Assembly (NCBI GenBank): GCA_965198225.1
Contig: CBDAOY010000005.1
Span: forward strand, 576,001-640,000
Direction: 5' to 3'
Source: Terriglobia bacterium
GTDB lineage: Bacteria; Acidobacteriota; Terriglobia; 20CM-2-55-15
DNA: 64,000 nt
In this document: positions 3,097-60,000 of the stretch, one piece after another
Numbering within the stretch: position 1 is the stretch's first letter
How the letters are laid out: each line of letters starts with the position of its first letter
Notes under the pieces: generated by a model
Told to the model about the DNA's origin: nothing
Databases searched by the model: none
Seen by the model: the letters and a program-made list of their open reading frames with translations, nothing else
Program-made: the position numbers and the translations under genes

Positions 3097-3355
3097 TAGC
3101 AACTTTAAACACGCAGCGGAACTCAGAATCGGATCCGTCAAGGCGACGATGTTGGGGAACAAGGTCGAAAATCTCACGACGCACAACGTCGTCTTCTCGC
3201 GACTCTACCGCGTTGGCGAGCAATGGAAGACCACACACACTTTCGTCGGGAACAGCCCGGTGATCCTCGCGAAGCTCGCCGACCAAGGGCACAGCTTCAT
3301 TGCTGAGAGGCACTTCGATCCTGACCCGGCTGGTGCGGCCGAGGACGGGGACTAG
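3092..3355 (+). CDS. Small conserved hypothetical protein, putative ssDNA-binding fold
   Basis: Strong RBS. The ELRIG.VKAT...NV.FSRLY..G.QWK.T..F pattern resembles small mobile-element proteins recalled from Planctomycetes and Acidobacteria. Confidence 0.6.
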   Translation: MASNFKHAAELRIGSVKATMLGNKVENLTTHNVVFSRLYRVGEQWKTTHTFVGNSPVILAKLADQGHSFIAERHFDPDPAGAAEDGD

Positions 3356-25616: not shown

Positions 25617-28600
25617 CTAGAACTCGTAGCGCAAGCCAAACTGTATGACGCGCGGCGGGATCAGCACCTGGGAGTAGTTGCCAAAGCTGCCGGGGAAGAC
25701 GAACGAGAGCGTTTCCCAAGCGTCGGGGTTGAACCGAACGCTGTTCGTCACATTGAAGGCCTCGGCCCGAAACTGAAGGTTGTGTCCCTCGAACGGCATC
25801 GGGAAGCGCTTTCCGATGGCCATGTCAATCGAGAATATCCCGTCGCCGCGCAGATTGTTCCGTTGCCCGATTTCGCCGGGCAAGACTTGCCGGAACGAGG
25901 CCAATGCCGCTGCGGGATCGCTGAAGACGTTCGGTCCCGTGCCCCCTCCGATCAACCGGGCGTTCTTCGTGTTCGTCTGTTCCGGGACCGGTCCCACCGG
26001 TTCGGCAAAATGCTGATAGCAATAGCATGTCGGCCAAGCCAGACCGTTCAACACACTGAGGGGAAGGCCTGACGTCAAGCGCAACAATCCGCTGACCTGC
26101 CAATCGCCAAGCACGGCTTGGCCCGCCGGCCCCAGGCTGGGCAGCAGAGGCTTCCCTTGGCCGACCGGCAACTCGACGACCCAGTTGGCGTTCCATTGGT
26201 GGCGCATGTCGAAATCGGAGACGGCCCGCTGCGCCTCCCGGTCCCAGGAATTGATGACGCTGAACGTCGACCAATAGGTGTCTCCCGGAATCTGGCCGAA
26301 CCTTTCACCCTGGCTGCGGCGGGCGCCAACCGACACCAAGTCCGTGGACTTGGACAAGGTGTAGTTCAGGTGGAACTGGTACCCTTGCGAGAAGGCCTTG
26401 CGCAGCGATACCTGCATCGAGTGATAGGTGGAGGTTCCGAAGGACCGGAGCGCATCGAAGGCCCAGAACTGGGGGTTCATGAACGTCCCTTGCCCCAGAT
26501 CGCTGCAGAACGGGGCGCAGGCGTAATCGAGATAGTAGAGCGCCGTGCCGGTATCGGGACTGCTGGACCGGATGACGTCGTAGACGCGCTGAGTCGCCGT
26601 GGCCTCCGGTTTGGCGGCTCCGGAATAGACGTTCTCCCAGAACCCGATGGGCGACACGTCTCCGGTCGGCACCCCGCGGCGCACCATGCCTTCGAGTTCC
26701 TGGAGCGAATCCATCAAATATTCGCCGGACGCGGGATCCCTGAAGTTGGTGTACTGAGCCGCGGCCGTGTCGTTGACGAGCAGTCTGCGACCGAGTCTGC
26801 CAACATAGCCGACCTCCACGAGGAACCCGCCGTCCAACTCACGGGCGATAGAGAAGGTGGGGTTGATGCTATAGGGCGGCCGCACGCTGGAGTCGACTCC
26901 CTGGCTCCATCCCAGTCCGGTTGGGTTTGGCGTGCCCGGCCCTCCTGGCGGTGGCGGCAAGATCCCTCCAGCGGGGGGGTCTGAAATCCCGGCGAAGCGA
27001 GGCGCCGTCGCCACAGTGAAGTCCTGCTTGGTCACCTTGCTGGTGAGGCCGAACGCGTTCCGGTCCAGCATCTGCATCATGCCCATCCCGAAGCTGCTGT
27101 AGAAGATGCCCACCCCGGCCCGGATCGATGTCTGGCCCGGGCTGCCGAACAGCTTGCCCAGAAAACCATCGGAGACATCCGGCGAGAAGGCCACGGAAAG
27201 TCGGGGCGAGAAATTCTTGTAATGGGTGGCCCACAGCGGGCCCCCTTGCGCATCGTCGGCCGGCACGAAGCCGATGGGTCCTGCTTCGCGGGAGGGACGG
27301 CCGTTCGCCGCCAAGTCCAGGCGCTGAGCGATGTAGGAGTCGAGATCCGGCGTGATGCTGACCTGGAGTCCATTCACCTCCCGAACCGGTGGCATGATGG
27401 ACCAACGCAGGCCGGCCGTGATTGTCAAGCCGGGCCTGACGCGCCAGATGTCCTGGAAGTAGAGCTCCAATTGTTCCGCACCGAAAGTTCGGCTCGTGGG
27501 GTCTCCCAGGGGCAACGGATTGCCCTCCAGGTCGTAGTTGTAATTGGCATCGTAGAAGTTGAGGACCCCCAGGGCGGTCGCCATGGTCTCCCGGTAGACT
27601 CCGGGGTTGGCGGGCGGGACGGGGAGCGGCCCGTCGAAGATCGTGGAGGCGTCGGGAAATGCCCAGGCGGCCTGTTTCGCGAAGTGATAGCTGCTGTCGT
27701 AACTCAAGCTGCGATTCCGAGTCGAAAAGAATGCCCCGCCGAACTGCAGGAAGTGCAGGCCACGTGTGACGGAGAAGTTTGCCGTCGCTGTCTGCGTCGG
27801 CACGTAGGTGTCCCGGGGAGTCGTCGCGCCCAGGATATCGTCAATGATGCTGTCTCCGAGACTGGCCCGGGATGCTGTCTGGACACCCGAAACATTCAGC
27901 TTCTGGGCACTGAATCCGTAGCGGAAGGCGCCGATGACGTTGCCGCCGAACGTGCCGTCGTATCCGAATGCCAACCCGCGGCTGGTGTCGGCCGTCTCGC
28001 TGTTAGAGGGCTGGCCGGGAAACTGGGGCACGCTCGAGATGCGGTCGTTCTGGTAGTTGGCACGCAGGAACATGCGGTGCAGACCGGTGCTATCGGCCGC
28101 CCAGTCGATCTTGGAAACGAATGTGTTCCAGGCCAGGGGCGTCGAGGCCGTGAACCGGTATCCCGCCGTGTTCAAGCCATCTCCGACGGTGGAGTCGTTC
28201 GGTTCCGGAAAGGACCCGAAGTATTCGAGAGTGGCGGGATTGGGACCCGCCTGCAGAGGATCGATCCGGGTGCGGATGAATTCCGGATCGAGCGTCTCGA
28301 CATCCCCGCTGGCGCTCCTGTACCGGACGAATCCATCGCGCATCGAAGCCGTCGGAACCCGGCGCACTGCACTGCCGTCGCTGGCGTCCCGGCGGCCTTC
28401 GTAGTTCACGAAGTAGAAGAGACGATCCCTCTTGACGGGGCCGCCGATGGAGCCGCCGAAGACATTGCGGATCAGCTTGGGACGATCGACACCGGCCCTG
28501 TTGTTGAAGAAATCATTCGCCGCCGTAATCGTGTTCCGGTGAAATTCGTAGAGCGATCCGTGGACCTCGTTGGTCCCGCTTTTCGTCACCAGCGACACCT

Positions 28601-29327
28601 GCGCACCCGACGAACGGCCCTGGTCGGCATTGGCCGTGGTCGTCACCACACGGAATTCCTGAATCGAATCCAGCGTGTTGCGCAGCACGCTGGTGAACGG
28701 CGTGCGTCCGTTCTGATCGTTCACATCGACCCCGTCCAGCGTCACGTTCGACTGGTCGCTCTGGGCTCCGTTCACCGAACCATTCCGGATATCCGCCGAT
28801 CGCTGGGTGTCCAGCGGGTCCGCGCTGATGAAGGTGACACCCGCCTGCAGCGAGAGCAGCCCGGCCGGATTTCTTGCATTCAGCGGCAATTGGCTGATCG
28901 GCCTGATTCCAAACGCGTTCCCAACTGACGCATCAGTGGTATTCAGCTGTTCGGCCACGGCGGACACCGTGACGGATTCGGTGAGCGCCGCGACTTCGAA
29001 TGTCACGGGAAGCTCGACGTTCGTGTTGACGAGCAACGTGACGCCTTCAATAGTCACCGATTGGAAACCCGTCTGGGTCGCCGACAGCGTGTAGGAGCCG
29101 GGTGGGAGCTGGGCAAAGATATACAGCCCCTCATTGTTGGACAGTATGGTTCGCTGGAGGCCGTTGGCGGCGTTGGTAACGGTGATCTCGGCGCCGGGGA
29201 ACACGGCGCCGCTCTCGTCGGTGACCCGTCCGCTCAAACTGCTGGATTGAGCGTGAGAATCTGGAGCGGCGAGGGTGATTGCCATCAGAAAGATCAAGAA
29301 CAGAGAGTAGAATCGAATTGGTTCCAT
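25617..29327 (-). CDS. TonB-dependent receptor with carboxypeptidase regulatory-like N-domain
   Basis: Signal peptide, DSIQEFRV, TKSGTNEVHG, NFSPRLSVAF and C-terminal RVIQFGLRYEF. Confidence 0.93.
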   Translation of the reverse strand: MEPIRFYSLFLIFLMAITLAAPDSHAQSSSLSGRVTDESGAVFPGAEITVTNAANGLQRTILSNNEGLYIFAQLPPGSYTLSATQTGFQSVTIEGVTLLVNTNVELPVTFEVAALTESVTVSAVAEQLNTTDASVGNAFGIRPISQLPLNARNPAGLLSLQAGVTFISADPLDTQRSADIRNGSVNGAQSDQSNVTLDGVDVNDQNGRTPFTSVLRNTLDSIQEFRVVTTTANADQGRSSGAQVSLVTKSGTNEVHGSLYEFHRNTITAANDFFNNRAGVDRPKLIRNVFGGSIGGPVKRDRLFYFVNYEGRRDASDGSAVRRVPTASMRDGFVRYRSASGDVETLDPEFIRTRIDPLQAGPNPATLEYFGSFPEPNDSTVGDGLNTAGYRFTASTPLAWNTFVSKIDWAADSTGLHRMFLRANYQNDRISSVPQFPGQPSNSETADTSRGLAFGYDGTFGGNVIGAFRYGFSAQKLNVSGVQTASRASLGDSIIDDILGATTPRDTYVPTQTATANFSVTRGLHFLQFGGAFFSTRNRSLSYDSSYHFAKQAAWAFPDASTIFDGPLPVPPANPGVYRETMATALGVLNFYDANYNYDLEGNPLPLGDPTSRTFGAEQLELYFQDIWRVRPGLTITAGLRWSIMPPVREVNGLQVSITPDLDSYIAQRLDLAANGRPSREAGPIGFVPADDAQGGPLWATHYKNFSPRLSVAFSPDVSDGFLGKLFGSPGQTSIRAGVGIFYSSFGMGMMQMLDRNAFGLTSKVTKQDFTVATAPRFAGISDPPAGGILPPPPGGPGTPNPTGLGWSQGVDSSVRPPYSINPTFSIARELDGGFLVEVGYVGRLGRRLLVNDTAAAQYTNFRDPASGEYLMDSLQELEGMVRRGVPTGDVSPIGFWENVYSGAAKPEATATQRVYDVIRSSSPDTGTALYYLDYACAPFCSDLGQGTFMNPQFWAFDALRSFGTSTYHSMQVSLRKAFSQGYQFHLNYTLSKSTDLVSVGARRSQGERFGQIPGDTYWSTFSVINSWDREAQRAVSDFDMRHQWNANWVVELPVGQGKPLLPSLGPAGQAVLGDWQVSGLLRLTSGLPLSVLNGLAWPTCYCYQHFAEPVGPVPEQTNTKNARLIGGGTGPNVFSDPAAALASFRQVLPGEIGQRNNLRGDGIFSIDMAIGKRFPMPFEGHNLQFRAEAFNVTNSVRFNPDAWETLSFVFPGSFGNYSQVLIPPRVIQFGLRYEF

Positions 29328-29593
29328 TTGATTAAATTCTCCTTACCTTTACCCGGACCGCCACAGGCTGAAGCACGTCCGGCGGGGAGAGCAGGATCAC
29401 CTCCGCGCGCGGGGGACTCTTTTCTCTTGCTCGACGTTCCCGGCATCATACTCGAATGAGAATCGTAAGCTACCGTATTACACCGTAGAGTCGACGACTG
29501 GCGCGGTGGCGGTAGGCAAAGGGGGTAGCTGTTGCCGGTGGCTTTCGCCGATTCCGGTGCCTCACTCCTCGCCGTGGCTTCGTTTCCAGTCGC

Positions 29594-30912
29594 ACCGGGT
29601 GGCCGGAGGCAGTTGCCCGCCTCCGGCTCCCACAGAACGCAGCGTGCGGATTTCCCGCACTGCGCTCTTCAGAATTGGATTTACAGCACAGCGAGAGACT
29701 GGAACTCCCGATAGCGGAGAGCCAACTTGGGACGCTGTAACGGAAAGTGCAGCCGAATCCGGTTGAATACTTCCCACCGGACGAAGCCTGCACGACTACG
29801 ACTGCTGAGCATTTGGCGCCAGTAACGTTCCACGGCCCGAGCGACGTGCTGCAGAGCCTCGGTTCAGATTGTGCACTTGCTCCCGGACCGGCAAGTGACG
29901 CATTCGCCTCATCACGCCGCGTAGATGAGCCAGACTGCGTCGAAGTCGAGACTTCTCACCGCGTCGGCCGGAATTTCGCTCTCGCTTATATCCGCACCTA
30001 CCGCGCAGGGCTCTAGGTCGATGTTTGTCTTCTCGGTTGCCCGCCCTTTCGTCTGCGGGTGCCACATCATCTCGACCTTACCTTCCGCTCGGACGATACC
30101 AGGCCTCCCTGGGTCACTCGCGTCTCTTCTCCACCGTGTCGCCCGCACACACCTTGGTGCGATGGGGTGGAACCAATGCGCCTTCGCCCCAATAGTGCGG
30201 GCTCGACCATTCCCCATCTTTGGCCGACCGGTTCATCCTCGGGATGGCTCCCGTCGATTACGACCCGGTGGTTCTCCTCATGCCCTTCAGACCCCACCTC
30301 GCGGTGGGCGCCCTGCCCTCCAAAGTTTCCGTAGCTGGCTCCAGCTTTGCCTTGGCCGTATCCGGCTTTCGCCTTCGTGCCCGTTTAGGCATCTGCACTA
30401 CCTGTCTACACTTCGGCCAGTGAGGCATTACCCCCACTTGTTGGATATCGACCCGTGGCCTCGGGCCGAGCGGGACTTTAACCCGCCGGAAACGCGTGCT
30501 GCCAGGCACGCACTATCAGCCAGTCTGACTTCCGACAGGCCTTCGGGTCTTCCTCGCGTTGTTGGCTTGTCCAACCCTACAAGCTCCGCTTGAACCTGAC
30601 GGATCTCCCTTGTTCCCATGAAATCCTTGGTTGCATGCCGGCGGTACGAACCCCGGAAGCACCCCAGGGCACTTGCCATTGCGTGCCCTGCGATTCCGCC
30701 TTCCCCCTAGAGCGACAGGGTCGGCTACTTCAACCACGTTCGATTTCGGGGCTATCTTTCCGTTCACTGGTGTTCCGGCCTACTCCCTCCCTGTCTACGC
30801 TTCGCAGTGTCCGTCACCGACCACCACGCAAGACTCGGTACGTGGCTGCCGGCTAGGCTCTGCCACGGCCGCCATCTCAGGCGACTGGATCTCATGCGCT
30901 TGCAAGGCGCAA
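29594..30912 (-). mobile_element. Nested group II intron 2 (RT mostly deleted), inserted in DVI of the outer intron
   Basis: 5' TTGCG at 30912. It has its own DV (GAGCGCAGTGCGGGAAATCCGCACGCTGCGTTC) and a DVI ending ACCCGGT. A maturase C-terminal remnant lies at about 29676-29940. Confidence 0.85.
29950..30513 (-). mobile_element. Nested group II intron 3, 5' part only, inserted in DIII of intron 2
   Basis: GTGCGTGCC...GCACGC...GGCGGGTTAAAGTCCCG starts right after AGTCAGACTGGCTGATA. DI motifs GTAGACAG and GAGCCC..GGGCGAAGGC are present. The 3' limit is approximate. Confidence 0.75.
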
Positions 30913-30963
30913 CGCTCATCGAACCGGACATGCGGATTTCCCGCATCCGGCTCTCGGACGAGA

Positions 30964-32304
30964 TCATGCCTTCGCCCACGGAAAGCTCGCCGTACGCGGC
31001 GCAAGATGCGTGAGCCCGTAATCGGACCAGAGCCGCTCGGACGGGAAGCGCACGTGTTTCCCGGTCCGCACCTTGTGCTTACGGCAGAGCCACTGGCGCA
31101 GCCGCCGGGTCGCGTGTTGATCAATCGCCTTGTAGGCCGGGCGGACCTGTCCCAGGATGAAATAGTTCGCCCAACCGATCAGCAACCGGTTGAGGCGTCC
31201 CACTACGACTCCCGACGGCAGGAGCACGTGGCGCGGCGCGGTCAACTCGCTCACACGACGGCAGATGCTCTGGACGCTTTCCCGGCTCGGATGTGTGCCT
31301 ATGTAGGCGGCACCCGTACCCGGCCGGTAGTTGCAACCGATCCGGTAGCCGAGGAACGTCATCGATTCCTCCGGCACCCGGCAGCAGCGGGTCTTCTCAA
31401 CGTTCATCGCCAACTTCAGACGTTTTATCAGGGCTTCGACCGCCGCTAGCATCACCGCTGCCGGCGCGCGACCGAGAACCGCGAAGTCATCCGCGTAGTT
31501 GACGATTTCCGCCTTGAAGTGCCGGGCGTAGCCCAGCACCTTCCAGCCCAGAATGAAGCGCCGCATGTAGATGTTGCTGAACAGCGGCGAGATCGGAGAC
31601 CCTTGCGGGGTCCCCTTCCGCTCGTGACGCGCCCGGTTCGTGCGGCGGCGACCGCCGCGCCCGTCGTCCTCTTCCACCGCCATCTCCAGCCACGCCTTGA
31701 CCCAGCCCAACAGCCGCCCGTCGCTCACACGCCGGGCGATGGACTTCATCAGGTCCGCGTGCGGAATCTGGCCGAAGTAGTCCGACAGGTCGGCGTCCAC
31801 CACCTCCCGGTGGCCCGTCCTCAGCAGCCGATGCACGCGCCTGACTGCGTCATGCGCGTCTCGGCCCGGCCGGTACGCATACTGCTCCGGTTGCAGGTCG
31901 GCTTCGAAGATCGGCGATAACACCAGCATCGCCGCCGTCTGCACCACCCGATCCCGGAGACACGGAATGCCCAACGGCCGGAACTTCCCTCGTTGCTTCT
32001 TCGGGATGAGAACCTGCCGAACCGCATGCGGCCGATAGGTCCCTTCCTTCAGGTCCCGCGCCAGTGCTCCCAGCCACCGGTCCACCCCGAACGCATCGAT
32101 GTCCGCGACCGTCTCGCCGTCCACCCCGGCCGCGCCGCCGTTGCGTCGCACGGCCTGCCAGGCGACTGCGAGCACGTCGTCGCGCCACACCTTGTCGCTC
32201 AGAGAGTAGAACCGGAAGCCCAGAGCTTCCTTCGCTTTCGCATGTAGCGCCGTCTGGAGTCGCTGAACTCTCTCCGAGGCTGTTAGGCTCTCGCCAGTCC
32301 TCAT
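30964..32304 (-). CDS. ltrA: Group II intron reverse transcriptase/maturase, no endonuclease domain
   Basis: GAAGVDG, RPLGIPCLRDR, VVDADLSDYF, GTPQGSPISP, NYADDF, FLGY and GWANYF motifs. Confidence 0.95.
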   Translation of the reverse strand: MRTGESLTASERVQRLQTALHAKAKEALGFRFYSLSDKVWRDDVLAVAWQAVRRNGGAAGVDGETVADIDAFGVDRWLGALARDLKEGTYRPHAVRQVLIPKKQRGKFRPLGIPCLRDRVVQTAAMLVLSPIFEADLQPEQYAYRPGRDAHDAVRRVHRLLRTGHREVVDADLSDYFGQIPHADLMKSIARRVSDGRLLGWVKAWLEMAVEEDDGRGGRRRTNRARHERKGTPQGSPISPLFSNIYMRRFILGWKVLGYARHFKAEIVNYADDFAVLGRAPAAVMLAAVEALIKRLKLAMNVEKTRCCRVPEESMTFLGYRIGCNYRPGTGAAYIGTHPSRESVQSICRRVSELTAPRHVLLPSGVVVGRLNRLLIGWANYFILGQVRPAYKAIDQHATRRLRQWLCRKHKVRTGKHVRFPSERLWSDYGLTHLAPRTASFPWAKA

Positions 32305-32481
32305 GTCCCTTCCTCCGTCATGCGCTGCTCTCGAACTGAGGTCCCTTCCCTCCACCGGCATTACCTGATGGGATGGACTCCTCCTTGATGACTGAGTCGG
32401 CATCGTAGTGCCAAAGTCATTGTGAAGCCTCGCGATGGTGCGGGCTAAACACGAGGACGTGTAAACAAGAAGGAGTCCGAG

Positions 32482-33516
32482 ATGAAGAGTAAAACGATCG
32501 CAGTGGATCTGGCAAAGAATGTTTTCGAGATTGGGATTTCCGACCGCCCCGGGCAGATGACGAAGACATACCGTTTAAGCCGGGGAAAGTTCTTGTCGTT
32601 TTTTGCGAATCAGGAGCTGGCGACGGTCGTGATGGAAGCCTGCAGTGCCGCCCATCACTGGGGACGAGAGATCCAGAAACTGGGGCACACAGTGGTACTG
32701 ATTTCACCGCAGTATGTCCGGCCCTACGTACCGAGGAGTAAGACGGATCGGGCGGATGTAAAAGGGTTGCTGGAGGCCCACCGGAATGCCGATATTCGGG
32801 CGGTACCCATTAAGACGGTGGCGCAACAGCAACTCACCGCCCTGCACCGCATCCGGTCGACCTGGATGCGGACCCGGACGGCGCGCATCAACATGGTGCG
32901 GGGGCTGCTGGGAGAGTTTGGGCTCGTGCTGCCGACGGGAGCCCGGCGGCTGGTGCCCGGAGTCATGGGGTTGATCGAAGATGCGGATGTTGAGATCCCC
33001 ATGACCGTACGCGTCATGTTCTCGGAAGTGTGCACCGAAATCCGCGAGCTGGAGGCACGCATTCAATCGGTGGAGCGGGAGTTGGAAGCCCTGGCCCGTC
33101 AGATGCCCGAGGTGGCCCGTCTGCGCTCGATCCCTGGAATCGGGCTGTTGACTTCCACGGCGATGGTAGGTTTTGTCGGTGACCCCCGACGGTTTCGATC
33201 CTGTCGCCACTTTGCCAGTTATCTGGGACTCACCCCGCGTGAGCGTTCGAGCGGAAACCGGCGTCGGCTGGGAGCGATCAGCAAACAAGGCAACGTCTAC
33301 CTGCGGATGCTGCTCATACACGGTGGCCGCACTCTGCTATGGAGTGCGCATCGAAAAGGGGCGCAACCTTCGGCTCTGCAGAAATGGGGTCTCCGTCTCC
33401 ACACACTCCGCGGGCACAACACGGCCACGGTTGCTTTAGCCAACAAACTGGCCCGCACGGTTTGGGCCGTCTGGACACAGGACACGGCGTACGAGGCTGA
33501 CCGACGGGCGGCCTGA
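32482..33516 (+). CDS. IS110 DEDD recombinase/transposase
   Basis: AVDLAKNVF, VMEAC, KTDRAD, SIPGIG, GLTPRERSSG and VALANKLAR motifs. Confidence 0.95.
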   Translation: MKSKTIAVDLAKNVFEIGISDRPGQMTKTYRLSRGKFLSFFANQELATVVMEACSAAHHWGREIQKLGHTVVLISPQYVRPYVPRSKTDRADVKGLLEAHRNADIRAVPIKTVAQQQLTALHRIRSTWMRTRTARINMVRGLLGEFGLVLPTGARRLVPGVMGLIEDADVEIPMTVRVMFSEVCTEIRELEARIQSVERELEALARQMPEVARLRSIPGIGLLTSTAMVGFVGDPRRFRSCRHFASYLGLTPRERSSGNRRRLGAISKQGNVYLRMLLIHGGRTLLWSAHRKGAQPSALQKWGLRLHTLRGHNTATVALANKLARTVWAVWTQDTAYEADRRAA

Positions 33517-33546
33517 CACCATGACTGTAGGAACATCCTTTCAGTA

Positions 33547-33717
33547 GACTGCGACGACGTTCGAGTTGATGACGTACCGGTCAGACCGGCGCGGGGAAAC
33601 GCCGGAGAAGCCGTGGCCCCTGGAGGCCGTTTACCCGGTTGGCACCCCGCGCGCGAATTTCATCATGGCCCGGAACTCAAACGTTCCATTCGAGAGGCCG
33701 AAGATACGGATGCAGTC
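33547..33717 (+). ncRNA. Putative bridge/seekRNA of the IS1111-type element
   Basis: Closing stem GACTGC/GCAGTC. Two internal loops carry target-matching segments (GAAGCCG, TTACCCGG) and donor-matching segments (CATCA, AGATA). Confidence 0.75.
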
Positions 33718-34420
33718 GATCTGTCACTCAACTCGAAAATCAAATATCAGGATGCTGAAAAGAATCTTCGGGAAAAGGATATGGGACAGCTGCGCCTACT
33801 TGACAGGAGGAGTCCAGATACGGCTTTCTTGGTACTGCGGACCTCTCCGCCACCCTGTCGGCCCAACCTGACCCTCGCGGGCTGTCGGTTGGCGCGTGCC
33901 ACGCCACCGGCAGGGCTTCCCGTGTTGCGTCCAATCCCCTCTTCCATACATGCCACCGCCCAATACCCCGGCGGAACCAGTCGGTGCTCGCGTCGCTCGC
34001 TTCCCGACCGCTGGCAGCCTTCCCCGTTTCAACGGCGGGTCGGCTTCCGCATTGTGCGTTTCGAGGCCTGCTCGGCGTTTACTCGCGTTGTGGCCTGTGT
34101 GGTCGCTGAGCCGCCCGAGGCGGCCCTTTGTCATCGGAGTGCTTCAGACGATGTTGTTACCTCCACCATCCGCTCCGATTGCTACCGACTGGAGCGACAG
34201 TTGCCGGGCGGGATTCGCACCCGCTGAGGATTGGCGCCTTCTCACGGCGCACGTTGAAATAAGACATAAGGACCCTCGTCGAGCAATACTGCGCTCGGGC
34301 CCGGCGGCGCAATCTACATCCCTGATCTACATACCCTGCCAATGCAAGGCACGCGCTCCGATGCACCGGCTCGGAGCCGCGCCATCCTGTACGTCGCCGA
34401 GCAGGGATGCACGTGGCGGG

Positions 34421-35974
34421 TTAACGGACCCTGCCCGCCGTGCTCGCGCGCAGGCCCTTCCAGGTGCTGTAGCACATGGCGACCAGCACCAGCGCGAAGG
34501 GGAGGCTGGCGGCGAGGGTGGCCGCCTGCGCGGCTACGAGGCCGCCGCCGAGCAGCAGCGCGATGGCGATCAGCCCTTCGAAGACGCACCAGAACACGCG
34601 CTGGGCAACCGGCGCATCCAGCTTGCCGCCGGCGGTGATGGTGTCGATGACCAGTGATCCGGAGTCGGAGGAGGTGACAAAGAACACCACCACCAGCACG
34701 AGGCCGATGAACGAGGTGACCGTAGCAAGTGGCAGCGTCTCCAGCAGCGCGAACAGGGCGATCTCCGGCTGTTGCGCCTGCACCGCCGCGATCACGGCGG
34801 GATGGCCGCGCTCGACGTACTGCGACACCGCGGTCCCGCCGAAGGCATTCATCCAGATCGTAGCAGTCAGCGTCGGGATGACCAGCATGCAGGCGATCAG
34901 TTCGCGCACCGTCCGGCCACGCGAAACCCGGGCGATGAACAGGCCGACGAAGGGGGACCACGAGAGCCACCAGGCCCAGTAGAAGGTCGTCCAGCCGTGC
35001 ATGAAGTCGAGATCCTCTCGGCCCACCCAGTTGCTGAGCGGTACGATCGATGCCAGATACTGGCCGAGGCTGGTCACAACGCCGGTGGCGATGACGCGCG
35101 TCGGCCCGACCGTCAGCACGAACGCCAGCAGTAGCAGGGCGAGCAGCAGGTTGGCCTCGCTCAGCCGCTTGACCCCCCTCTCCATCCCGCTGACGACCGA
35201 CGCCAGCGCCATGCCGGTGATGCCGACGATCAGCAGCACCTGGGTGGTGTCGGTCGCCGGCGCGCCCCACAGGCGGGCCAGCCCCGCCGCCAACTGCTCG
35301 GCGCCCAGGCCGAGCGATGTGGCCAGTCCAAAGAGCGTGGCAAAGACGGCGAGGATGTCGATGCCGTGGCCGAACCGGCCCCACACCGCCTCCCCCATGA
35401 GCGGATAGAACGCCGACCGCAACGCCAGCGGCAGGCCGAGGTTGTACGAAGCGAAGGCGATCGCCACCGCCACCACCGCGTACATGGCCCATCCATGGAT
35501 TCCCCAGTGGTAGATGGCGCTGGCCATGCCGAGGCGCGCCGCCGCCGGGTCGCCCGCCGCGAGACCGAGCGGCGGGTGCAGGAAATGCTCCACCGGTTCC
35601 GACACCCCGAAGAACATCAGGCCGATGCCCGTCCCGGCGGCGAACAGCATGGCGAACCAAGCCGATCTGGAATAGTCCGGCCGGGCATCTGCGCCGCCCA
35701 GGCGCACGCGGCCGACCGGCGTCACCAGCAATAGCAGGCAGAAGAGCACGAAGAGGGTGGCCACGCCCATCAACACCCAGTCGAAGGTCGACATGAGCCA
35801 CGCGCGCAACGCCCCGAAGGCGACCGCCGCCCCGGTCTGGAACGCCAGCACCCCGGCGACGAATGCGATGATGGTAAGGCTGGAGACGACGAAAACCGGA
35901 TTATGGATGTCGAGGCCGAGGAACTGGACGTTGTCCTGACCCGGCTTGTAGTCGATCTTCGAGATCTCAGCCAT
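34421..35974 (-). CDS. BCCT family betaine/carnitine/choline transporter
   Basis: WFAMLFAAGTGIGL, YHWGIHGW, WTTFYWAWW.SWSPFVG and FFVTSSDSG motifs. Confidence 0.95.
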   Translation of the reverse strand: MAEISKIDYKPGQDNVQFLGLDIHNPVFVVSSLTIIAFVAGVLAFQTGAAVAFGALRAWLMSTFDWVLMGVATLFVLFCLLLLVTPVGRVRLGGADARPDYSRSAWFAMLFAAGTGIGLMFFGVSEPVEHFLHPPLGLAAGDPAAARLGMASAIYHWGIHGWAMYAVVAVAIAFASYNLGLPLALRSAFYPLMGEAVWGRFGHGIDILAVFATLFGLATSLGLGAEQLAAGLARLWGAPATDTTQVLLIVGITGMALASVVSGMERGVKRLSEANLLLALLLLAFVLTVGPTRVIATGVVTSLGQYLASIVPLSNWVGREDLDFMHGWTTFYWAWWLSWSPFVGLFIARVSRGRTVRELIACMLVIPTLTATIWMNAFGGTAVSQYVERGHPAVIAAVQAQQPEIALFALLETLPLATVTSFIGLVLVVVFFVTSSDSGSLVIDTITAGGKLDAPVAQRVFWCVFEGLIAIALLLGGGLVAAQAATLAASLPFALVLVAMCYSTWKGLRASTAGRVR

Positions 35975-59883: not shown

Positions 59884-59955
59884 GGTGTAGGGGCGGTCTA
59901 TGACCGCACATTCTTCGAACCGAGAACACGTCCGCTCATACAGCGCACCTACACC
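59884..59955. repeat. REP doublet (GTAG-type)
   Basis: GGTGTAGGGGCGGTCTATGACCGC ... GCTCATACAGCGCACCTACACC inverted pair in an intergenic region. Confidence 0.6.
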
Positions 59956-60000
59956 CGATCCTGGAGTTTCGCGTTTCTCAGCGCCGAGATAGGCCTCGGT

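Follow-up and report, generated by a model that had tools for sequence, protein, structure and literature searches.

Positions 29485 to 34252 of a 64,000-nt stretch of DNA from a Terriglobia bacterium (the window; C5:576001-640000 of the source genome, called G000, which is 6.4 Mb long in 9 contigs) hold members of three different group II intron families, nested one within another on the minus strand. We refer to the outer intron as O, to the intron inside it as Y (intron 2), and to the one inside Y as X (intron 3). We conclude, with a probability of roughly 0.8, that the region arose by successive retrohoming events, in which group II introns entered one another, and has since decayed. An earlier note, written from the sequence of the window, had read it as three nested group II introns, each with an exon-binding site 1 (EBS1) matching its insertion site. 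The nesting of three families stands, but the third intron survives only as a 557-nt 5' fragment. There are three families but two domains V (DV), because a deletion fused the fragment of X to the 3' end of Y.

From the comparison of copies we infer the following order of events. O, which encodes a reverse transcriptase (RT), would have inserted after TTTCAAC in the intergenic space between a BCCT transporter gene and an outer-membrane beta-barrel gene. Y would then have homed into domain VI (DVI) of O, and X, which lacks an open reading frame (ORF), would either have been in Y already or have been received afterwards. A later internal deletion of about 1.5 kb probably joined nt 557 of X to the last 363 nt of Y, taking with it the DV and DVI of X, the 3' half of domain III of Y and most of the Y RT gene; it may have come about when the reverse transcriptase switched templates while copying the composite, or it may have been an ordinary deletion. 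The remaining steps would be a further deletion of 47 nt and the insertion of an IS110-family insertion sequence (IS) into domain IV of O.

The boundaries of the outer two introns follow from a BLAST comparison of the pieces of the region with their own genome. An uninterrupted copy of O (C6:7952..5959, 1994 nt) matches window positions 34252..33821, 32365..30913, and 29593..29485 at 99.7-100% identity, and thus joins 33821 directly to 32365 and 30913 directly to 29593. In a second copy (C5:748253..743295), which carries the IS110 element and a further insertion of about 1.5 kb in its 5' segment and is free of Y, 30913 again joins 29593. Because such intact and Y-free copies exist, the segments 33820..32366 (the IS, 1455 nt) and 30912..29594 (1319 nt) must be insertions, and the boundaries proposed earlier for O and Y prove to be exact, as do the positions on the minus strand of all the short sequences quoted with them. 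With Y removed, the 3' end of O folds as domain V followed by a long domain VI, in which an A bulges out 7 nt before the end; this agrees with the earlier prediction that excision restores this helix. On the intact copy (locus L015) the Rfam DV/DVI model RF00029 scores 45.2 bits.

O has all the hallmarks of a group II intron: a domain I with a matching EBS1, a 5' GTGCG, DV and DVI, and an RT ORF, in whose protein no endonuclease domain was found. Positions 116-216 of the Rfam model D1D4-6 align to 34067..33965 (38.1 bits), which places the EBS1 hairpin loop. The EBS1 itself is GTTGAAA at 34033..34027, within the loop CCGTTGAAA (34035..34027), and is complementary to the TTTCAAC that ends the 5' exon. 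This match is borne out across the source genome, where TTTCAA[C/T] precedes five O 5' ends with 4 distinct flanks. About 20 nt of 5' flank (CTTATGT[C/T][T/G]TATTTCAAC) are common to three O copies, so the homing site of O is longer than its intron-binding site 1 (IBS1) and is repeated in the genome.

At gathering score, the Rfam matches to the nest comprise two segments of domain I and two of DV/DVI (Table 1). The third intron gives only sub-threshold signals for domain I (30488..30201; 15 and 24.5 bits), and a permissive scan of the window finds no third domain V. A single intron with internal 5'-like motifs was considered and is ruled out, as intact and partial copies of the introns exist separately.

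A full Y is 1936 nt long and consists of a 399-nt 5' segment followed by 1537 nt that contain a 448-aa RT ORF, DV, and DVI. Its junctions are unambiguous against intact O. The EBS1 of Y is CGCTC at 30714..30710, the candidate EBS2 is ATCGAAC at 30744..30738, and DV lies at 29667..29635. Y carries X after CTGATAGT, and the GT at 30513-30512 is also part of Y. The window copy does not have the complete domain set, with nt 400 to about 1525 deleted (the 3' half of domain III and most of the RT ORF); its 3' remnant is 88% identical to 7 full Y 3' ends, a value due to the 47-nt deletion. The source genome contains 6 Y 5' segments, of which, beside the window copy, four are 100% and one is 82.7% identical to it. 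All 6 carry X. Four of them lie within domain VI of O and two elsewhere, and both of the latter sites read GUU[C/U]-NNN-GAGCG directly before the junction.

An intact X is 908 nt long (numbered from the GTGCG at 30513) and has no ORF. There are about 20 X 5' segments in the source genome, with at least 9 distinct 5' flanks, and the complete copies end in ...CGACTCTAC followed by varied 3' flanks. An alternative in which 30513..29594 is one ORF-deleted intron (560 nt plus a Y-like 3' end) was tried and ruled out, given that solo X copies end in CGACTCTAC at 908 nt. The last 90 nt or so of X fold as a DV with 13 bp, an AGC triad, a 2-nt bulge, and a GAAAA loop; a DVI with a bulged A follows, and the whole fold is nearly superimposable on the DV and DVI of O. 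The domain V assignment for X is thus a predicted one, based on the fold and on this likeness. Complete X copies, too, give only a sub-threshold domain I match (24.5 bits). Two full-length X copies, at C6:345943 and C5:503868, have a 475-aa ORF in domain IV whose product shares 33% identity with the RT of O and 32% with that of Y, so an RT for X exists in the source genome.

The deletions are seen when the window is set beside the other copies. At 29957/29956 X breaks off after nt 557 and the last 363 nt of Y follow, whereas other copies continue with X nt 558-908 and then with the 3' strand of domain III of Y and the RT ORF. The 47-nt deletion is at 29858/29857, within the 3' remnant of Y. 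Between 30513 and 29700 there is no DV, and the window X therefore has no DV, no DVI, and no 3' splice site. Although removal of Y from O restores DVI, X and Y are both truncated, so that sequential splicing, which the earlier note had envisaged, is impossible at this locus; judged by its sequence, the locus would no longer splice sequentially and is probably a dead relic.

A working triple twintron, in which intron 3, intron 2, and the outer intron are spliced in sequence, is accordingly hard to credit, even though three 5' ends and their EBS1 loops are all present and contigs from RNA libraries cover parts of the region. The window has two DVs only, X is missing nt 558-908, and Y is missing the 3' strand of domain III. 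The RNA contigs say nothing either way about splicing, and the same sequences occur as multi-copy DNA. The public data that we used are Logan contigs of four public runs, compared over 29300-34400; such contigs lose rare variants and are uninformative on splicing or transcript ends. A joint from 29549 to 30913 in one RNA contig (25 nt on one side) lies off the intron boundaries and was set aside as splice evidence, and joints that skip the IS, or loose ends at 29593 that run into GAGCG, match O copies in DNA that are free of the IS and of Y.

The main rival to decay is an assembly artefact: the nest would be real, but the assembler would have collapsed a complete Y with a complete X, of the kind found at C6:838810-843620, into the truncated form. 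Several points weigh against decay. The junctions 29957/29956 and 29858/29857 occur nowhere else in the source genome, and no listed contig of the four public runs bridges either of them. Those contigs that extend to 29957 run on into canonical X sequence, while pieces of Y end at 29858. The genome also has many copies of these elements that are 100% identical and therefore hard for assemblers. The decay is therefore put forward as probable, and an artefact as unlikely. The deletions are not between repeats, and no homology is seen at the flanks of 29957/29956, whereas a collapse normally joins homologous points. Elsewhere the genome was assembled into 9 contigs through many identical repeats of 2-5 kb. 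Finally, the silence of the Logan contigs is less telling than it seems, since they drop rare variants and the depth at the flank of the locus was only 4.5 in the best run. Where public contigs can be compared they agree with the nest: the Y/X junction is bridged by contigs of three runs, the same junction occurs in another genome (G020) at 100% identity, and the public contigs also show an IS-free O.

Fuller nests exist elsewhere in the source genome, including X inside X inside Y inside O. At C6:838810-843620 the order is O (internally deleted), the 5' part of Y, X nt 1-579, one entire X, the remainder of the interrupted X, the remainder of Y, and what is left of domain VI of O. At many loci of this genome, 5' segments are stacked in front of only one 3' segment and the flanks do not match, as would be expected if homologous recombination collapses nested near-identical copies. 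Flank mismatches of this origin are found at many copies, and the counts and statistics of homing given below are not corrected for relatedness.

The position of Y in domain VI of O appears to reflect a habit of its lineage. A search with the Y RT gave 80 loci (protein identity 73-100%) from Terriglobia and other Acidobacteriota, Alpha-, Beta-, and Gammaproteobacteria, and metagenome-assembled genomes of Desulfobacterota type; isolates among them include Mesorhizobium, Paraburkholderia, Caballeronia, Microvirga, and Methylobacter. X-free Y homologues of about 90% identity are present in five of 40 related genomes (G012, G021, G005, G003, and G002). Members of the lineage start with TTG[C/T]GCCTTG and end in ...CCCGGT. 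In RNA terms these ends are 5'-UUGYG...GU-3', a departure from the canonical 5'-GUGYG...AY-3', and the domain I, DV, DVI, and RT hallmarks are all present.

A DV-shaped hairpin ends 5-9 nt before the UUGYG in 50 of the 63 loci with at least 59 nt of upstream sequence, at a spacing of 7 nt in 28 and of 8 nt in 14; the hairpin descriptor is a loose one, for which 0.06 chance matches are expected per window searched. Because the 63 upstream sequences are diverse, forming 31 clusters at 80% identity, they were not carried along with Y. A host RT ORF lies upstream on the same strand in 20 of 54 loci. When 13 loci were scanned with Rfam, 9 had either a host domain I upstream (5 loci) or an RF00029 match abutting the junction (5 loci), and one of them, L051, had both. 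The host domain I families were D1D4-6, -4, -3, -2, and -1, and small ORF-less hosts were among them. When Y was deleted in silico and the flanks joined, the host DVI helix was restored in 45 of 56 loci.

The pairing between the Y lineage and its hosts covaries. In 20 distinct combinations of EBS1 and IBS1 (for example GAGCG/CGCUC, GCGGG/CCCGC, GGAGG/CCUCC, and GGGAG/CUCCC), the two match at 4.55 of 5 positions, while shuffled partners match at 3.88 +/- 0.13 and reached the observed value in none of 2000 shuffles; one locus (L049) was left out of this count and of that for EBS2 because of poor alignment. The correspondence between the EBS1 of Y and its site, which the earlier note had pointed out for one locus, thus extends to the lineage. 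The EBS2 count was anchored on a motif and excludes 15 loci that lack GGNT[CT] at -17..-7. The intron sequence GAAC occurs together with host GGUU[C/U] in 12 of 12 loci, and GAUC with host GGAUC (21 loci) or GGGUC (8 loci) in 29 of 31; the covariation has a Fisher p = 6e-9, not corrected for relatedness. We suggest that in this lineage EBS2 is addressed to the conserved 3' end of domain V and EBS1 to the first bases of domain VI, which would account for both the fixed position of insertion and the host range. In the window, the EBS2 of Y (AUCGAAC) would pair with the last bases of O domain V and the linker (GUUCGAU, 30924..30918), and its EBS1 (CGCUC) with the first five bases of O domain VI (GAGCG). 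These patterns support a lineage specialised on the start of domain VI, directly after domain V, in several phyla.

It might be argued that the hairpin is not a host DV at all but a structure that Y recognises or carries, like the terminator and attC hairpins of IIC introns; after all, 34 of 54 loci have no host RT upstream, and UHB.I2, a published relative with the same termini (UUGCG..GU) and the one report of such termini in the literature searched, is said in PMC7923331 to follow an attC stem-loop. We find this very improbable. The host in the source genome is a complete intron with an intact Y-free copy, ORF-less introns are included among the hosts whose domain I was recognised upstream, the 3' flank completes the DVI helix in most loci, and the variety of the upstream sequences is not what a carried structure would give.

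X, for its part, is found at a different place. Upstream of 9 of the 11 X 5' ends examined in the source genome, at a distance of 90-290 nt, there is a gathering-level domain I of another intron, representing 7 distinct hosts (D1D4-6 in three, D1D4-3 in two, and D1D4-2 in two); two contexts gave no match. In a consensus fold of 54 distinct Y-family sequences, the X site is on the 5' side of an internal loop in the last hairpin before domain IV. This hairpin covaries (one pair is GC in 26, AU in 16, CG in 6, and GU in 5), and its loop AUAGUA is kept in 47-53 of the 54. The EBS1 of X is ACTAT at 30196..30192, in the loop GCACUAUU / GCACTATT (30198..30191). A further motif common to the X sites, C[A/G]GA[Y]C some 10 nt upstream, is complementary to the GGUCUG of X. 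X would therefore read AUAGU/A in the internal loop of domain III by means of its EBS1 ACUAU, and probably also CAGAYC, in J2/3 and the base of the stem, by means of GGUCUG. In addition, X is inserted into X itself, in domain IV, after GGGGAATAGT.

Comparison with empty sites moves the 5' boundary of X by 2 nt. X-free Y homologues in other genomes (4 loci, L025-L028) read ...GGCTGATAGT ACTC... (GATAGT.ACTC), 7 X-free copies of a V-type host intron read CATAGT.AGCCCGG, and 12 of the 13 listed solo X copies read GGGGAATAGT.ACTCAGG; occupied sites read ...ATA GTGCG...CTCTAC AC.... Since all three kinds of empty site read ATAGT/A, the inserted DNA of X is GCGTG...CTCTAC, which starts at 30511, and the GT is 5' exon. 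The pairing of the X loop with GATA/GT that the earlier note had proposed is right in that ACUAU pairs with AUAGU, but the GT belongs to the exon. In our reading, GCGUG would keep G1, G3, Y4, and G5 of the GUGYG consensus.

The X RT has few close relatives: among 150 genomes of the class they were found in two, at 55% identity. One of the three relatives lies about 240 nt after a D1D4-4 match and another abuts an RF00029 match. The third has no host-intron match, and its flank has a GTCAGATC motif like that of the X sites. Owing to this rarity, the generality of domain III homing rests mainly on the source genome and two of the three relatives. With that scope, the sequences support an X specialised on the domain III loop in several host families and on its own domain IV.

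Together these results suggest two hyperparasitic lineages for which the catalytic core of other group II introns is the natural homing site: Y-type introns, which would enter 5 nt into domain VI, and the ORF-less X, which would enter the domain III loop at AUAGU/A. As part of the same proposal, excised X would begin at G3 of GUGCG, with each target supplying the missing GU. We offer it tentatively and rate its chances at a little under even. Several observations count against our main reading of the region, that of serial retrohoming. The descriptor finds no hairpin in 13 of the 63 Y-type loci, and 2 of the 3 contexts of Y 5' segments in the source genome have no recognisable DV before them. 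RF00029 does not recover the DV of X, either at gathering score or at E<=1. One host family has empty sites that read CATACT instead of CATAGT, and is either an exception to the rule or a diverged host. The GGUCUG of X overlaps a motif that is conserved in the Rfam D1D4-3 model and may be structural, so its assignment as EBS2 is tentative. Lastly, with flanks mismatched by recombination, not every intron copy is an independent homing event. The earlier note had proposed a guild of elements specialised on ribozyme domains. This idea holds up as far as introns 2 (domain VI) and 3 (the domain III loop, and its own domain IV) are concerned; it does not extend to the IS110 element, of which two of the four copies are elsewhere.

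Nests of prokaryotic group II introns, up to five deep, are reported for Methanosarcina acetivorans in PMC4424553 (section 17), which describes insertion balanced by recombinational loss and no coding exon. Copies are lost there by recombination, which in our case would account for the stacked 5' segments, the single 3' segment, and the mismatched flanks. Judging by the title of Dai and Zimmerly (2003), the archaeal introns home into the ORFs of related introns, whereas ours are bacterial and target ribozyme domains VI and III, and the habit of the Y lineage, unlike the M. acetivorans case, spans several phyla. The twintrons of Thermosynechococcus elongatus, as described by Mohr et al. 2010 (PMC2882425), resemble the present ones in that an ORF-less intron has entered ORF-containing introns at a conserved site, with inner copies that are identical although the outer copies have diverged; the composite is mobile as a whole or in parts, and one intron contains an IS. 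They differ in that the site lies in domain IV between two start codons, where it is harmless to the ribozyme, and in that there are two levels only. That introns serve as perpetual homing sites for each other is already in print (PMC4424553, section 17; PMC2882425, discussion), with intron ORFs or domain IV as the nesting sites in those accounts.

Two further comparisons are instructive. The 'zombie' twintrons of plant mitochondria (PMC7049729) have a degenerate inner member, and a self-invading intron described with them may be compared with X in its own domain IV, but these cases are organellar. IIC introns, at terminator and attC hairpins, and the IIB1 clade of start and stop codons, as characterised in PMC12584367, are likewise defined by a class of target; here, by contrast, the target is the catalytic core of another intron, and what is recognised is apparently a conserved sequence, through EBS/IBS pairing, and not the shape of a hairpin. 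We found no description of homing into domain VI or III in the literature searched, although Michel et al. 2007, Simon et al. 2008, or the Zimmerly database may hold one. The three-level nest in itself is not new, while the domain VI and domain III target habits of the inner families appear to be.

Spliceosomal introns and non-LTR retroelements are presumed to descend from group II introns, and a central question is how group II introns come by safe sites in a compact genome. A lineage addressed to the end of domain V, the best conserved sequence of group II introns, would have a target wherever group II introns exist, and no host gene would be harmed. As the guests lie within domains III and VI, they should have to be removed before the host ribozyme can act; if the proposal is true, this would hold for both lineages, tying the activity of the host intron to the guest's own splicing and making a testable case of parasitism among selfish ribozymes. 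Complex twintrons, and introns that are fragmented or degenerate, could arise naturally in this way. The habit may also explain why pipelines that assume one intron per locus miss these elements; both PMC4028801 and PMC8919778 state that nested introns are lost. For the window alone, the result is the annotation of an intergenic relic: a dead nested intron with an IS.

Table 1. Intron-related features of the window, with the repeated sites elsewhere in the source genome (position 1 is the first base of the window unless a contig is named)
Feature	Position	Strand	Details
O with all insertions	29485..34252	-	Starts GTGCG, ends CGACTCTAC (CTCTAC at 29485); 1994 nt when intact
IBS1 of O, TTTCAAC	34253..34259	-	Last 7 nt of 5' exon; in the shared 5' flank of O copies
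Shared O 5' flank	34253-34275; C4:145550-145571; C5:825952-825973		
O domains I-III	33821..34252	-	D1D4-4 at 34226..34083, 82.8 bits; D1D4-6 partial match
O RT/maturase ORF, 479 aa, open	30964..32403	-	Pfam RVT_1 (2e-32), GIIM (3.4e-14)
O domain V	30920..30953	-	RF00029 at 30955..30894; fold
Remainder of O domain VI	29485..29593	-	Bulged branch A at 29491; 3' end CTCTAC
IS110-family IS, 1455 nt, in O domain IV	32366..33820	+	Absent from intact O
Transposase ORF, 344 aa	32482-33516	+	Pfam DEDD_Tnp_IS110, Transposase_20
Y in O domain VI	30912..29594	-	Starts TTGCG, ends CCCGGT; inserted 5 nt into DVI
Y target	30913..30924	-	IBS2 GTTCGAT 30924..30918 (O DV end and linker); IBS1 GAGCG 30917..30913 (first 5 nt of DVI)
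Y 5' segment (domains I and II, 5' strand of domain III)	30514..30912	-	D1D4-6, 137.2 bits
Y 3' remnant (last codons of RT ORF, DV, DVI)	29594..29956	-	RF00029 at 29669..29594, 47.1 bits; ends CCCGGT
X 5' fragment, nt 1-557 of 908	29957..30513	-	Domains I-III, start of IV; no DV/DVI
Rfam D1D4-4	34226..34083	-	82.8 bits
Rfam D1D4-6	30877..30643	-	137.2 bits
Rfam RF00029 (DV/DVI)	30955..30894	-	40.3 bits
Rfam RF00029 (DV/DVI)	29669..29594	-	47.1 bits
Head-to-tail introns	C5:889426-889560; C4:150207-150340		L041 2426-2560; L020 4907-5040

The IS110-family element lies antisense to O. Its assignment to the family is based on a DEDD transposase, a Transposase_20 domain, identical copies, and a conserved target: the source genome has 4 identical copies with the common target GCCG/GGTAAKGC. 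Two of them share a single position within domain IV of O, on the upstream side of its RT ORF; the other two are in unrelated repeated sequence. A specialisation of this element on ribozymes is not supported by these sites. The nest is flanked by the BCCT transporter gene (34421-35974) on one side and by the gene for the 1236-aa outer-membrane beta-barrel protein (25617-29327) on the other.

Two variants of Y deserve mention. At C5:816900-818800 (locus L014) there is a copy without Y nt 219-399 and without X, in which the break falls within 0-2 bases of the X 3' junction. Over the next 620 nt or so identity drops to about 80%, and small indels are numerous; the remainder is 100% identical. This copy could have been mis-spliced and re-inserted, or it could reflect patchy gene conversion. 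On contig 24 of G020, a genome of another genus, a Y 5' segment with X is 100% identical to that of the window and is attached to a different host domain V (loci L024 and L042). Such identity suggests that the composite was recently transferred between the genomes or that both had it from a very recent common source.

A fourth intron family (Rfam D1D4-2), whose members start with GTGTGCCACG, directly abuts the domain VI end of another intron (...GGGCTACTCGAC/GTGTG). As it starts right after the last DVI base of its neighbour, the two introns lie head to tail, an arrangement found at two places in the source genome (Table 1). A relative of this family starts within the RT ORF of O, at about position 3100 of locus L020. 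The source genome also has a very abundant dispersed repeat of about 72 nt, with copies that are 80-96% identical and often form tandem or inverted pairs; it occurs at C9:460599-460673 and at hundreds of other places, including C5:635885-635989 (about 59885-59989 of the window).

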